64,000 nucleotides of DNA from assembly GCA_049852185.1 (NCBI GenBank), contig CP187540.1, one strand, 5' to 3'. Below are positions 1,441 to 64,000 of this stretch, one piece after another. The stretch's first letter is position 1; the number at the start of each line of letters is the position of its first letter. This stretch comes from Methanocaldococcus sp. 28A. Its GTDB lineage: Archaea; AGJL01; Methanococci; Methanococcales; Methanocaldococcaceae. A program made the translations under genes and the position numbers. The notes under the pieces are model-generated. The model saw only the letters and a list, made by a program, of their open reading frames with translations, ran no database searches and had not been told where the DNA came from.

Positions 1441-1550
1441 ATAGAACTTTCGTATGAATAAATTTATTATATTAAATATAGACACCTAAGGGTGTCAAAG
1501 TTCCAAAATTTAATATATAAACTTTAATATATAAACTGCGAAAGTTCTAT
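1441..1550. repeat. Palindromic MITE-like element, family 1
   Basis: Ends ATAGAACTTTCG / CGAAAGTTCTAT; inner hairpin GACACC-TAAG-GGTGTC; internal 14-bp tandem duplication TTTAATATATAAAC (1509-1536). Confidence 0.88.
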
Positions 1551-4011: not shown

Positions 4012-4102
4012 ATAGGACTTTCGCAAGAATAAATATTTTATTGAACATAGACACAAAATGTGTCTAAATTCTAAATATATGTAAAAAGTGCGAAAGTCCT
4101 AT
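4012..4102. repeat. Palindromic MITE-like element, family 1
   Basis: Perfect ATAGGACTTTCGCA / TGCGAAAGTCCTAT ends; inner hairpin TAGACACA-AAA-TGTGTCTA. Confidence 0.92.
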
Positions 4103-7234: not shown

Positions 7235-7329
7235 ATAGGACTTTCGCACTTTATATAATTAAATAAGGAAAAAATGATGCCAAAGGCCTCAAAGTTCATA
7301 AATATTATTTATGCCTACGAAAGTCCTAT
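7235..7329. repeat. Palindromic MITE-like element, family 1 (GATGCC subtype)
   Basis: ATAGGACTTTCGCAC ... CTACGAAAGTCCTAT; inner GATGCCAAAGGCCTC. Confidence 0.9.
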
Positions 7330-10388: not shown

Positions 10389-10480
10389 ATAGAACTTTCA
10401 CATATTATATACTAATTAGGAATTTAGACACATTTAAGGTGTCATGTTCAATAAAATATTTATTCCTGCAAAAGTCCTAT
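10389..10480. repeat. Palindromic MITE-like element, family 1
   Basis: ATAGAACTTTCACA ... TGCAAAAGTCCTAT; inner GACAC...GTGTC. Confidence 0.85.
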
Positions 10481-10487
10481 TTAATAG

Positions 10488-10592
10488 TTGTGTGCAAAAC
10501 TATCTTAATTAAAATAAGGTATTAGTGAATGCCTTCCTTGTGGAAGGCATTCAAATTATTATTAATAAAAGTTTATCTCATTTTGCATACAA
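10488..10592. repeat. Palindromic element, family 2
   Basis: Ends TTGTGTGCAAAA / TTTTGCATACAA; central hairpin GAATGCCTTCC-TTGT-GGAAGGCATTC; related copies at ~22400 and ~32121. Confidence 0.75.
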
Positions 10593-10700
10593 ATATAATT
10601 TACACCTCCTCGCTATACTCGGAGGTGTTAGCTTTGATGAAACTTTCTTAAAGTTTCTTTCATTTCCTTCTATTATATTTTTAATTTGGAGGTGATAGGG

Positions 10701-25674: not shown

Positions 25675-25868
25675 TGTATCTCCCTTTTAAAATTATAGAG
25701 CTTTTGCAGAAATTAGTGAATTAGTTTTAGTTTATATTATTATATTGATATCTAAAATTCCAGATATTAAATCATAATAATTAAAGTAATCTCAATTGAT
25801 GATGAGTGAAACTATTTATAAAAAGTTTAGTAATTAATTACATAAAATATGAATTTAAGGGAGATATT

Positions 25869-34076: not shown

Positions 34077-34167
34077 ATAGGATTTTCGCAGTTTATAATA
34101 TTAGTTTTGGAACTTTGACACCTTTAGGTATCTATATTCATAAAATTTATTCCTGAGAAAGTCCTAT
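34077..34167. repeat. Palindromic MITE-like element, family 1
   Basis: ATAGGATTTTCGCAG ... CTGAGAAAGTCCTAT; inner GACACCTTTAGGTATC. Confidence 0.88.
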
Positions 34168-58387: not shown

Positions 58388-59265
58388 ATCACAACAACAA
58401 TTTTAAATGTCATATATGGTTTACGGAGTATCATAGCAACAATATAGCTTTGTCCGTTAGAGTTAAAGATATATTATATATGGATAAATCTGAATTCCAA
58501 GAAATAGAGATTATCGATACCTATGACTTTGGAAAGGTTTTAATCTTAGATAATACTTTTCAAACAACAGAGAGAGATGAATTTATATATCATGAGTTAA
58601 TTGCTCATATACCTCTTTTTACACATCCAAATCCAAAGAATGTTTTAGTTATTGGAGGGGGAGATGGAGGGACTGTTAGAGAGGTAGTTAAGCACAAATC
58701 AGTTGAAACTGTAGATTTTGTTGAGTTAGATAGAAAAGTTATTGAAGCTTGTAAAAAACATATGCCAAAACTAAGCTGTGAAATTGATAATGAAAAGGTT
58801 AATTTGATAATAACAGATGGAATTAGGTATGTTGCTGAAACTGACAAAAAATATGATGTAATTATTGTCGATTGCCCAGACCCTGTTGGACCTGCTAAGG
58901 GGTTATTTGAGAAAGAGTTTTATAAAAATGTATTTAAATGTCTAAAAGATGATGGAATTATGGTCCAGCAGTCAGAAAGCCCATTATACAATTTAGATTT
59001 GATACAAAATATTTGCAGATATTTAAAAGTTGCAGGATTTAAGATAATTATGCCTTATACTTATCCAATGCCAACATATCCAAGTGGATTCTGGAGCTTT
59101 ACATTAGCATCTAAAAAATACAATCCATTAGAAGTTGATGAAGTAAGAATAAAAGAAGCTTTAAAAGATATGGAAACTAAATACTATGATGAAGAAGTTC
59201 ATAAGGGAATATTTTTAGCCTCTCCAAAATTTTTAAAAGATGCGGTAAAAAAAGCTATTGAATAA
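58384..59265 (+). CDS. speE: polyamine aminopropyltransferase (spermidine synthase)
   Basis: [31 protein letters not shown]. Confidence 0.96.
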
Positions 59266-59290
59266 CATTATCTCTTTTAACTTTAATATT

Positions 59291-59383
59291 ATAGGACTTT
59301 TTCAGCTTAATATAAAATATGGATAAATTTGATACCTTTAGGTGTCTATATTCAATAAAAATTTTATTCTGCGAAAGTCCTAT
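59291..59383. repeat. Palindromic MITE-like element, family 1
   Basis: ATAGGACTTTTTCAG ... CTGCGAAAGTCCTAT; inner GATACCTTTAGGTGTC. Confidence 0.88.
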
Positions 59384-59402
59384 ATTAATACTGGGTGATT
59401 GA

Positions 59403-60257
59403 ATGAGAGATTATTTTGTTGATTCATCTAAATTTATAATGGCAAATAGCTCATTTGAAGAAGCTGAAGGAGTTATATTTTCAATACCTTATGATGAAAC
59501 TACTTCCTTTAAGCCAGGAACAAGGGAAGGAGGAAATGCTATAAGAATGGCATCGTGGGGTTTGGAAACATATAGTCCTATCTTAAATAGAGATTTGTCA
59601 GAGTTAAGATATTGCGATTTAAAAGATTTAGATTTGTATGGGAACCAAATGGAAATATTTAACACAATACATCACGTCTCAAGAGAAATATTAAAAAAAG
59701 ATAAAAAAATAATTGTTTTTGGTGGAGAGCATTCTATAACTTATCCAATAATTAAAGCTGTAAAAGATATCTATGATGATTTTATTGTCATCCAATTCGA
59801 TGCCCACTGTGATTTAAGAGATGAGTATTTAGGAAATAAATTATCTCATGCATGCGTTATGAGGAGAGTTTATGAATTAACTAAAGATATATTTCAATTT
59901 GGTATTAGAAGTGGAGATAAAGAAGAGTGGGATTTTGCAAAGAAAAACAATCTCTATTTAAAAATGGATTTAATTAATGAGGATGATTTAGAATATATAA
60001 AAAGTTTAGATAAACCAATATACGTAACTATAGATATTGATGTATTAGACCCTTCCTATGCCCCAGGAACTGGTACTCCAGAACCTTGTGGTTTTTCAAC
60101 AAGAGAGCTCTTTAACTCCATATATTTATTAAAAAATGTTAAGGATAGAATTATTGGATTTGATATTGTTGAAGTTTCACCAATTTATGATATTGCTAAT
60201 ATTACAGCAATAACAGCGGCAAAAATAGCGAGAGAGCTTATGTTAATGGTTTTATAG
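59403..60257 (+). CDS. speB: agmatinase
   Basis: [28 protein letters not shown]. Confidence 0.95.
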
Positions 60258-60475
60258 GGGTCTTCTTAATGTCATTCCTCCATTAAATCGAGGTTGTCAA
60301 AAAATATTAAATAACTAATAATAGACAATACAAAATATGAATCGGGAAGGAAATAAGAAAACAAGAGAGAAAAAGGAAAGTTCCAAGAAGCGGAAGGGTT
60401 ATTGAAAAGCTTATAAGCTTAGATATAATAAATACGACATAATGGAGGATTATGCATTTATTTTACGTATTATAG

Positions 60476-60632
60476 ATAGGACTTCCGTAGTAATAAATAT
60501 TAATAAGGTATAACGGTTTGATTGCACTTTTTATATATATTAATGAAAAAATATTATTTATGAATTCAAACCGTTATTTGATGCCTTTGGCATCATATTT
60601 TCCTTAATTATTATATAAAGTGCGAAAGTCCT
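60476..60632. repeat. Family-1 element (GATGCC subtype) carrying a nested 68-bp inverted-repeat element
   Basis: ATAGGACTTCCGTAG ... GTGCGAAAGTCCT; nested ATAACGGTTTGA (60510-60521) / TCAAACCGTTAT (60566-60577). Confidence 0.85.
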
Positions 60633-61021
60633 CTCCAACAATAATAAGCAAATTCGGTCGATTTAGAGTAAATTTTATCTATAACAAAGTCATCTATAAC
60701 GACAATATTATAATCAGGAGTGATTAAATCTTTAACGAAATTAAAAAGCTTTTCTTGTGGGAAGATTCCTTCTTCCCAAAGTATTCTATTTATCGTGTCA
60801 TGAGATATGTCGATTCCGAAAATACGCAACGTTTTCGATAACTCTACACACGAATTAATCTCTGAAAGTAATATAAAAAGCATATAAACGATAGTCCTCG
60901 ACATTTTTAGCATATTTTCCCCAAAATAAACTTTTGTTTCGAAAAATTATAATATCTGATAAAAATAGATTATCATAAAATATTATAATAAAATATTTAA
61001 ATATGCTTGCAAAAGTCCTAT
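60633..61021 (-). mobile_element. IS701-like element, left part: terminal repeat plus 5'-truncated remainder (N-terminal transposase fragment)
   Basis: ORF from 60913 has ISHDTINR and VVIDDFVIDKIYSK (first D of DDE); upstream end on the minus strand reads ATAGGACTTTTGCA (61021-61008); ORF breaks at the repeat at 60632. Confidence 0.72.
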
Positions 61022-61170
61022 CATGAAATGTTATAATAAAATATTTAATATAGCTGTTCAAATATTAAAAATATTAACTCTAATATTAATATCTCATGGA
61101 CTTCTTAATTAAATTTTTCGAAAACCTCGGTCTATAGTGTCAAAAAATAAATTAAAAAATAATTTTAGAG

Positions 61171-63351
61171 TTATTCTAATTTAAGTCCTTTTCTCTCTCT
61201 AATCTGCTTAATTAATTGCTCTTGCAACTCTCTTGGAACTCTCTCATATCCTGCAAACTCAATACTCCAGAGACATCTACCCTGTGTAGCTCCTCTAATA
61301 GCCCCTGCAAATCCAAACATCTCTGCAACAGGACACTTAGCTTTAATAATTGCCATATCTCCCTCTTGCTCCATATCTAAGATTTGCCCTCTCCTGTTGC
61401 TAATTTCTCTCATTGCAGCTCCCATGAAGTCCTGAGGTGTGTTAATATAAACAAATTGCATAGGCTCTAACAATACTGGATTTGCTTGCATCATTGCATC
61501 TCTAATACCAAATCTTGCTGCTGGAATCATTTGTGCTGGTCCTCTATGGATTGCATCTTCGTGTAAGACAGCATCCATTAATTTGACTTTAACTCCCTGA
61601 CACTTCTCTGCTGCCAATGGACCATTTCTCATAGCTTCTTTGAATCCTTGGATAATCAATTCTTTGACTTCATCTAAGTGAACAATACCTCTTGTCATAT
61701 TAACAAGAACGTTTCCTTCATAGATACACATGACCCTTTTAGCTTCTTCTGGGTCCATTCCAGCTTTAATTAATTCTTGAACAATCTTATCATCTAATTT
61801 TCTCTTTGTATCAACATCTGGGATTTTTCCTTCTTTATATGCTTGTAAAACCCCCTCTTCTAATGGTTCAACCATGAAGTAGAGCTTGTTGTGCTTGTTT
61901 GGAGATTTACTTTCAATCATTGGTGATTGTCTTGTTACTGTTTCTCTATAGACAACGATTGGTTGCCCTACTTCAACTGGAATTCCTGCATCCCTCTCTA
62001 TTTTTAATTTTGTTATAATTTCAATATGTAACTCTCCCATACCACTTAATAAATGCTCTCCTGTTTCTTCATTAATCTCTACTCTAACTGTTGGGTCTTC
62101 TCTTGCAACTTGTCTTAAAACTTCAATTAACTTTGGTAAATCTTTTGTATTCTTAGCTTCAATAGCAACTGTAATGACTGGCTCACTAATGTGTGTTATT
62201 GCTTCGAATGGCTCAATTATATTATCTGGGGAACAAATTGTTTCTCCTGCTGATGCTTCTTTCAAACCAACCAATGCACAGATATTTCCTGCTGAAATAC
62301 TATCTACTGGAATTCTTTCTGGACCCATGAAGACAGATACTTGCTGAATCTTTGCCTTCTGCTGGTTATTTACCATATAAACTTCGTCTCCTTGCTTAAT
62401 TCTACCACCGAACAATCTGCAGACAGAAACAGCTCCAGCGTGTTTATCTACAATAATTTTGGTAATGACTCCTGCTAATGGTCCGTTAGGATCACAGTTA
62501 AGCATAGCTTTTCCAGCTTCTGATTCCAAATCTCCTTTCCACAAGTGTGGTATTCTGTATTTCTGAGCTTCTGGAGGGCTTGGTAAGTGCTTAATGACCA
62601 TATCCAAAACAACTTCGTGTAATGGAGCTTTCTCAGCTAATTCATCTTGTTTATCCTCTTCACAATACTTTATAATATCTTTAAATGTAATTCCACTCTT
62701 CTTCATGAATGGTACTGAAATTGCCCAGTTGTTGTAAGCTGAACCAAACGCAACACTTCCATCCTCAACTTTAACTAACCACTTGTCTTTAAATTCTTCT
62801 GGAGCCATCTTTCTAATTAAGTTGTTAATATCATTAATAATCTTGATAAATCTGCTTTGTAACTCTTCAGGTGTTAATTTTAACTCATTGATTAATCTAT
62901 CTACCTTGTTGATGAAAAGAACAGGCTTAACTCTCTCTTTTAATGCCTGTCTTAGGACAGTTTCTGTTTGAGGCATAACTCCTTCAACTGCACATACTAC
63001 AACTATAGCTCCATCAATAGCTCTCATAGCTCTTGTAACGTCCCCTCCAAAGTCAACGTGTCCAGGAGTGTCTATTAGGTTAATTAAATACTCTTTTCCT
63101 TCATAGGTGTGGACCATTGAAACATTTGCAGCGAAGATTGTAATTCCTCTTTGAGCTTCCTCTTCATCAAAGTCCAAAGCTAACTGCTCTCCAGCTAATT
63201 CTTTTGAAATCATTCCTGCTCCAGCCAATAAGTTATCTGATAATGTTGTTTTTCCATGGTCAATGTGAGCACAGATTCCAATATTTCTTATTCTATCATA
63301 CTTTTCCATTAACTCTTTAATTTTAGCAATCATTTTTGCTCTTTTTCCCAT
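61171..63351 (-). CDS. fusA: elongation factor EF-2
   Basis: [26 protein letters not shown]; diphthamide loop HEDAIHRG. Confidence 0.98.
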
Positions 63352-63460
63352 ATTACTCACCTTCTACATAATGTTGTTCATATTATGTGCATATTTTATC
63401 AATAAATATTTTAAATATTAATGTCATGTATAAAAATAGAGATATGTGAGTATAAAAAGT

Positions 63461-63555
63461 TTAGGACTTTCGCAGGATTGAATTTTTTATTGAACAATGG
63501 ATACCTATAAGGTGTCCAAATTCCAAATTAATATATAAAGTTGCGAAAGTCCTAA
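63461..63555. repeat. Palindromic MITE-like element, family 1, between rpsG and fusA
   Basis: TTAGGACTTTCGCA / TGCGAAAGTCCTAA; inner TGGATACCT-ATA-AGGTGTCCA. Confidence 0.92.
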
Positions 63556-63558
63556 AGG

Positions 63559-64000
63559 TTATCTTGCTGACTGAGCTACTCTTTCTGTCTCTTCTTTCTT
63601 TCTGACAGCATAGCTTCTCTGCATATCTCCTCTTGCAGCTGCAATAATCTCTTCAGCTAATGCCTCTTCAATTGGCTTTTTACTCTTGTGAGCAGCCATG
63701 TATGCTCCAATAGCAATGTTTCTTAAAGCAACATCAATTCTTCTCAATGATGAACAATCAACTGATTGTAAATAGACAATACCTCCATAGGATATTCTTG
63801 TTGTATCTTCTCTTGGTCCAGCGTTTTCAATTGCATCCACTAAAACCTGAATTGGATTTTGTTTAGTTCTTTTTTCAATAATTTCAAAAGCGTTTTCAAC
63901 TATTTTTAATGCCTTTAATTTTTTACCTGTGTTTTCTTCTCTTCTCATAACTTTGTTTACTAATCTCTCAACAATGTTCATTTTTGCTTTTTCAAATTGT
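63559..64000 (-). CDS. rpsG: 30S ribosomal protein S7 (5' end outside the window)
   Basis: [43 protein letters not shown]. Confidence 0.97.

Follow-up and report, generated by a model that had tools for sequence, protein, structure and literature searches.

The locus at 60633-61020 of the window, the whole 64,000-nucleotide stretch analysed here from the genome of Methanocaldococcus sp. 28A (G000), is a dead copy of an IS, truncated at its 3' end, whose terminal repeats recur in about a hundred small palindromic repeats of the same genome. These repeats are MITEs, since target duplications and pairs of filled and empty sites were found for the IS and the repeats alike. The explanation that we hold to be very likely as a whole is the following. 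The element is an IS of 1,133-1,135 bp with a 332-aa DDE transposase of the IS701 family and imperfect inverted repeats of about 30 bp, the outer 13 nt of which read TAGGACTTTYGCA. It inserts into AT-rich targets, mostly of the form T...A, and duplicates 5-8 bp of them; intact copies elsewhere in the genome would supply the transposase, which, by recognising the 13-nt ends, would also move the gene-less palindromic repeats of about 90 bp in trans. The window copy lost everything beyond nt 389 at a MITE junction, probably through an adjacent deletion or inversion mediated by the MITE or by the IS. The features of the window are collected in Table 1.

Table 1. Mobile-element features of the window (strand given where assigned; TSD, target duplication; G014, nearest relative).
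Feature	Position	Strand	Remarks
Family-1 MITE, 108 bp	1442..1549		TSD TATATA; empty site in G014
Family-1 MITE, 89 bp	4013..4101		TSD TATATA; empty site in G014
Family-1 MITE, 93 bp	7236..7328		Exactly at a synteny breakpoint against G014
Family-1 MITE, 89 bp	34078..34166		Common to G014
Family-1 MITE, 91 bp	59292..59382		5-bp duplication TATTA; common to G014
Unrelated repeat of another family, ~200 bp	60276..60476		Fills the space up to the agmatinase-like gene
Long family-1 MITE, ~157 bp	60477..60632	minus	Abuts the IS break in the same orientation; no target duplication
Truncated IS copy, nt 1-389 of the 1,135-bp IS701-family IS	60633..61020	minus	blastn of a full copy against the genome
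Residual ORF, 100 aa	60611..60913	minus	Residues 1-93 are the transposase N-terminus; last 7 codons and stop read into the adjoining MITE
Left terminal inverted repeat TAGGACTTTTGCA	61008..61020	minus	Exact match
Decayed remnant, resembling nt 10-49 of an older IS copy	61021..61060	minus	Direct repeat 60971-61000 / 61019-61048 at 93%
Family-1 MITE, 93 bp	63462..63554		Absent at the orthologous G014 site

The truncated IS copy of the window

From 61020 down to 60633, the window copy aligns collinearly with nt 1-389 of all full-length copies that the genome contains, and blastn gave an identity of 97.4% to the reference copy over this length. What it has retained is the left terminal repeat of 13 nt, followed by a leader of 94 nt and by codons 1-93 of the transposase gene. 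The initial annotation had described a family-1 end at 61008-61021, about 95 nt upstream of a transposase N-terminus and the only such end attached to an ORF. The end was confirmed as 61008-61020, base 61021 being flank; the ORF begins 94 nt inside the repeat, and no second family-1 end of the window is attached to a transposase. All of the 12 copies compared start at this left repeat, their flanks diverging directly outside it. Allowing up to two mismatches, the family-1 motif occurs 16 times in the window against 2.76 expected, a number reached by none of 100 shuffles.

The part of the transposase left in the 100-aa residual ORF comprises a putative DNA-binding region and the first catalytic Asp pair (D74/D75), while D158 and E256, the second Asp and the Glu of the conserved triad, are gone. 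Both ISHDTINR and VVIDDFVIDKIYSK are present in it. NF049921, the NCBIfam IS701 model, matched the ORF with an E-value of 7e-14 and 52 bits over model positions 5-90 of 318, by which it is the N-terminal quarter of an IS701-type transposase; its score falls below the cut-off of 250 because only 93 residues are left. Pfam provided no usable match for this 100-aa fragment (HTH_Tnp_Tc3_2, E-value 0.16). In annotations, this ORF should carry the label transposase pseudogene fragment. The locus had been proposed as a broken master copy, of which "broken" is correct and "master" is not, as eight copies with intact ORFs lie elsewhere in the genome.

Full-length copies and homologues in other genomes

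With one copy as the blastn query, nine full-length copies (1,133-1,135 bp, 98.9-100% identity) were detected in the same genome together with nine IS fragments, the window copy included; tblastn against the window's own genome gave 11 further copies, with the 332-aa ORF in 8 of the 12. Among the full-length copies, this ORF is intact in eight of nine, and the inverted 13-mer TAGGACTTTYGCA stands at both ends of all nine. In all copies, the IS begins with TAGGACTTTTGCA or TAGGACTTTTACA, some 107 nt ahead of the ATG, and the flanks outside this end are unrelated; all eight copies with an intact ORF end in TGCGAAAGTCCTA or TGCGAAAGTTCTA, about 15 nt past the stop codon. The left and right ends form imperfect inverted repeats over about 30 nt.

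NF049921 matched the 332-aa protein over residues 10-320 with 289.6 bits, above the cut-off that the fragment failed to reach, and the earlier description of the element as IS701-like was thus upheld. Pfam assigned DDE_Tnp_2 (ISC1217), DDE_Tnp_1 and DDE_5, and a search of PDB sequences with the full transposase returned no match at E ≤ 1. In an alignment of 13 homologues, D74/D75, D158, E256 and K263 are invariant and the YREK positions show no conserved Tyr or Arg, i.e., there is a DDE triad with an incomplete YREK.

Some of the incomplete copies show a history of their own. An old, decayed copy at C1:1179442-1180288 of the window's genome (89-95% identity) has a degenerate left end and has lost internal sequence by a deletion, so that nt 120 is followed directly by nt 394. 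Its part at C1 1179442-1180182 (IS nt 394-1135) was considered as the missing half of the window copy and rejected, being joined to IS nt 20-120 within this decayed copy. At C1:531110-531269, a fragment comprising IS nt 1-161 lies inside one MITE and is cut off by another, which shows nesting. The copies at 561956 and 770160, both without duplications, were compared as possible reciprocal products of a single inversion; the flanks of the two did not match up, and the idea was dropped.

A protein query of 40 Methanococcales genomes found the transposase in four, namely the window's own genome, a draft from the same genus (G012), and the two genomes of a genus belonging to the other family (G038 and G039). 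Six elements examined in the latter three genomes are 1,126-1,137 bp long, with up to 84% amino acid identity, and all six carry TAGGACTTTCGCA or TAGAACTTTCGCA as inverted sequences at their two ends; the target duplications measure 6, 6, 5, 5, 5, and 0 bp. Whether intact homologues share both ends, a check set out in advance, was thereby answered in the affirmative for nine of nine copies here and six of six in the other genomes. In a large protein collection, few close relatives were present (78-82% identity), the next matches having at most 39%, and a search of genome contigs for related loci yielded two only, one in a Methanocaldococcus MAG (83%) and one in a bacterial MAG (32%).

Family-1 repeats

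Within the 1.56-Mb genome, 283 family-1 ends were counted, compared with 4-43 for 20 scrambled motifs; 190 of the 283 show one mismatch or none. Among the 283, 87 inverted pairs were recognised, their lengths peaking at 89-94 bp; nine of the pairs are IS copies and 47 measure 85-100 bp. The alignment of these 47 MITEs gave a consensus of 91 nt, in which AT-rich arms connect the 13-nt ends with a central palindrome that occurs in two variants. The repeats are small and non-coding, occur in many copies and have terminal inverted repeats, as is characteristic of MITEs.

The MITE ends agree with the right end of the IS in 13 of 13 nt and with its left end in 12 of 13. Beyond the 13-mer, the left arm of the MITEs contains a subterminal stretch of 13 nt equal to the left end of the IS, a score reached by 8 of 2,000 shuffles; the remaining three comparisons between MITE and IS arms were not significant. 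As their likeness to the IS is confined to the termini and this short subterminal stretch, the MITEs did not arise from it by recent deletion. Their interiors diverge much more than the IS copies do, with a median identity of 65% over all pairs and 83% to the nearest neighbour; diverged interiors between conserved ends are the pattern expected if a recognising enzyme keeps the ends.

Target duplications and filled versus empty sites

For the duplication count, element boundaries were taken as TAGGAC...GTCCTA. Perfect direct repeats of at least 5 bp flank 26 of the 87 pairs (61 being without one of this length), as compared with 3.4% of 7,482 mismatched flank pairs (binomial P 1e-17). They were found in 16 of the 47 MITEs of 85-100 bp (8 of 5 bp, 5 of 6 bp and 3 of 7 bp) and in six of the nine IS copies (5, 6, 6, 6, 7 and 8 bp). 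The duplicated targets are AT-rich and mostly begin with T and finish with A. The TA-centred targets previously suggested were not found: the TA is part of the element, and it is the 5-8 bp outside the TA that are duplicated. A TA duplication of the Tc1/IS630 kind was likewise rejected, the empty site in the RuBisCO gene having no TA in its target and the 5-8-bp repeats lying outside the TA. Counting the TA as the duplication, with boundaries set accordingly, gives a poorer fit and is at odds with the empty sites.

One intact copy of the IS, at C1 76530-77664 (L013 1501-2635), splits a RuBisCO large-chain gene between PF00016 profile positions 234 and 235. None of the four relatives compared has the IS at this site, and in all four the flanks are contiguous with an overlap of 6 bp; G014 has a single TCCAAG there, compared with TCCAAA on both sides of the IS in the window's genome. 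As the IS splits a gene whose site is empty in all four relatives, the window's organism is probably without a working form of the RuBisCO large-chain enzyme. G014 lacks three MITEs of the window (1442-1549, 4013-4101 and 63462-63554) and has a single copy of each target, namely TATATA for the first two and AAGTT for the third, the filled site of the latter being flanked by AAGTT and AAGGT. G014 is the nearest relative, with aligned blocks that are 88-99%, mostly 92-97%, identical. Both the IS and the MITEs have therefore inserted since these two lineages split, and the comparison of filled and empty orthologous sites, which had been recommended with a view to target duplications, revealed them for the IS in the RuBisCO gene and for the three MITEs. 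For the IS copies at 130183 and 770160, no empty-site comparison was obtained, as their two flanks map far apart in all four relatives; for the copy at 1319134, whose right flank has no good match in the relatives, no empty site was identified.

Breakage of the window copy and genome rearrangement

The IS sequence stops at nt 389, and the next base opens a family-1 MITE of 157 bp in the same orientation, the boundary between the two being ambiguous by 1 nt. The ends of this long MITE are TAGGACTTCCGTA (plus strand, 60477) and GAGGACTTTCGCA (minus strand, 60621-60633), and its interior resembles that of the MITE at 7236-7328 and of long MITEs of G014. Nested in it, at 60510-60577, is a palindromic piece ATAACGGTTTGA...TCAAACCGTTAT; similar nested pieces were seen in G014 MITEs of 189-190 bp (L022 7355-7543 and 11539-11728). 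On the other side, judging from the sequence of the decayed remnant at 61021-61060, the present window copy seems to have landed in an earlier IS copy.

Seven of the nine IS fragments keep the left end, and three of these seven, one of them the window copy, directly adjoin the end of a MITE that has the same orientation. This pattern fits an adjacent deletion or inversion starting from an inserted MITE, which we infer from the fragments and their junctions. Such an event is probable for the window copy because the locus lies at the synteny breakpoint that separated EF-2 from EF-1alpha, the whole 870-bp stretch sitting at this breakpoint relative to G014. The genes for EF-2 and EF-1alpha are usually linked. 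In G014, EF-1alpha follows EF-2 and the agmatinase-like gene is about 8 kb off in opposite relative orientation; in the window's genome, the two are 260 kb apart, as read from 61129-61171 of the window and from C1 575254, where the EF-1alpha block is found.

Comparison of positions 1-64000 with G014 gave at least ten synteny blocks, mapping all over the G014 genome, and family-1 elements were observed at three of the breakpoints of the window, i.e., the MITE at 7236-7328, a solo end at 25696 and the region 60258-61129. The finding of the IS and its MITEs would account for the strong rearrangement that sets this genome apart from G014. At C1:574600-575250, upstream of the EF-1alpha block that has been displaced, there is what appears to be a broken helix-turn-helix transposase gene of another family, with an in-frame stop and interrupted by a family-1 MITE (574893-574986).

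Which enzyme moves the MITEs

From the shared ends and the duplication lengths, it is most likely that the MITEs are moved in trans by the 332-aa transposase. The initial annotation had regarded the ~90-bp repeats as non-autonomous MITEs of this IS; that they are MITEs with the ends of the IS has held, while their mobilisation by its transposase is something that we infer, and close relatives have many of the MITEs and no transposase. At one mismatch or less, there are 229 ends in G014, 70 in G001, 49 in G005 and 46 in G007, next to the 190 of the window's genome. The protein query found no transposase match in any of these four relatives, and the NF049921 profile none in G014, G005 and G007 and only one of 35 bits in G001. 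Moreover, 69 kb of G014 contain four MITEs missing from the window's genome, two of them with clean duplications of 7 and 6 bp; therefore, either something moved MITEs in a lineage that is now free of the IS, or the window's genome has lost them. With regard to these observations, and to the old and diverse MITE interiors next to IS copies that, being 98.9-100% alike, look like a recent burst, another enzyme might be supposed to move the MITEs, its transposase now lost or borne by a plasmid or virus, with the IS sharing ancestral or convergent ends only. We consider this unlikely, given that the 13-nt ends are identical, that IS and MITEs have the same unusual duplication range of 5-8 bp, and that IS and MITE ends occur together in a second genus (G038 and G039). 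Loss of the autonomous partner with persistence of the MITEs is common for MITE families, and we favour the loss of the IS from the transposase-free lineages after it had moved their MITEs over the alternative of another enzyme acting on the same ends.

Though the central palindrome of the repeats can form a hairpin and they are mostly intergenic, as fixed host elements such as terminators or structured RNAs would be, the dispersed positions of the repeats and their presence/absence polymorphism with target duplication between the window's genome and G014 contradict a fixed host function, and an Rfam search of 59000-64000 gave no relevant family at E ≤ 1, so that we regard this explanation as very improbable; a secondary use of MITEs by the host may exist alongside mobility. 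Practically nothing is left of the idea, named beforehand as one to be tested, that 61008-61020 is the end of an independent MITE relic beside an unrelated ORF. Solo family-1 ends are indeed common, 113 being unpaired genome-wide, yet here the collinearity with the nine full-length copies extends over 389 nt, taking in the end, the leader and the first part of the ORF, and the flanks diverge exactly outside the 13-mer. The idea is refuted: because of this collinearity, the end is the true left end of the IS and belongs to the element of the ORF, not to a neighbouring MITE relic.

Comparison with known systems

By the similarity of its transposase, the element is classified into the IS701 family: the protein scores above the NF049921 cut-off and has a DDE triad without a complete YREK, as in the family definition given by De Palmenaer, Siguier and Mahillon (2008, PMC2266710). 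In that paper, IS701 elements are described as 1,400-1,550 bp long, with a duplication of "exactly four" bp in almost all of 27 elements, and their ends by the consensus ---YACT-Y--YR, which does not represent the whole family. Of the seven specified positions of this consensus, which is not family-wide, six agree with TAGGACTTTYGCA, position 4 being G and not Y (PMC2266710). Unlike the elements so described, those found here and in the other genomes are only 1,126-1,137 bp long and live, in the present case, in an archaeal hyperthermophile, and their duplications measure 5-8 bp in six of nine copies here and 5-6 bp in five of six elsewhere, instead of 4 bp; the 4-bp duplication is a typical trait of the 27 elements of 2008 and not a criterion that defines the family (PMC2266710). 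The 6-bp overlap at the empty RuBisCO site confirms a duplication longer than 4 bp. The best Pfam match links the transposase to the archaeal ISC1217 type (PF04693, DDE_Tnp_2; E 2.8e-9, residues 53-287), a weak match.

Palindromic repeats of Methanocaldococcus jannaschii, termed MJRE (MJRE1-3), were reportedly described by Suyama, Lathe and Bork in FEBS Lett in 2005, in a paper whose abstract is said to name no mobilising enzyme. By this description, the family-1 repeats would resemble them in being short, AT-rich, palindromic, dispersed and of the same genus. Findings in which a MITE is matched to an IS by common ends are well known. For Sulfolobus, MITEs were assigned to ISC transposases via similar terminal repeats (Redder et al. 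2001, as cited in PMC2229807), and the present case is alike in that archaeal MITEs are linked to a transposase through IS-like termini; it differs in the IS families and hosts, and here filled and empty sites are added for both partners. A literature search, with most subscription journals outside its reach, retrieved no paper linking Methanocaldococcus repeats to an IS701 transposase.

The chances appear to us evenly balanced that, for the orphan palindromic repeats of Methanocaldococcus (MJRE type), this IS represents the autonomous partner that has long been missing, still active here, with one copy knocking out a RuBisCO gene and family-1 elements at three of about ten synteny breakpoints within 64 kb, including the EF-2/EF-1alpha split, and that it stands for a short IS701-like subgroup with variable duplications of 5-8 bp and not of 4 bp. 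If true, this would provide a testable system for MITE mobilisation in a hyperthermophilic methanogen. The small palindromic repeats, a large family in genomes of Methanocaldococcus, would gain a probable mobilising enzyme, most of these genomes having the repeats and no transposase, and the 332-aa transposase and the 13-nt ends would be a simple experimental pair for transposition at high temperature.

Other repeats of the window

The unrelated repeat of about 200 bp at 60276-60476 has five further copies in the genome, 84-88% identical and all ending at the same position, besides two shorter partial matches, and it bears inverted ends of its own, TCCTCCATTA...TAATGGAGGA. At 10480-10600 there is a member of a further repeat family, about 115-120 bp in length, which matches three places of G014 at E ≤ 1e-30; repeats comparable to it adjoin two of the IS copies and match at least a dozen places in G014.
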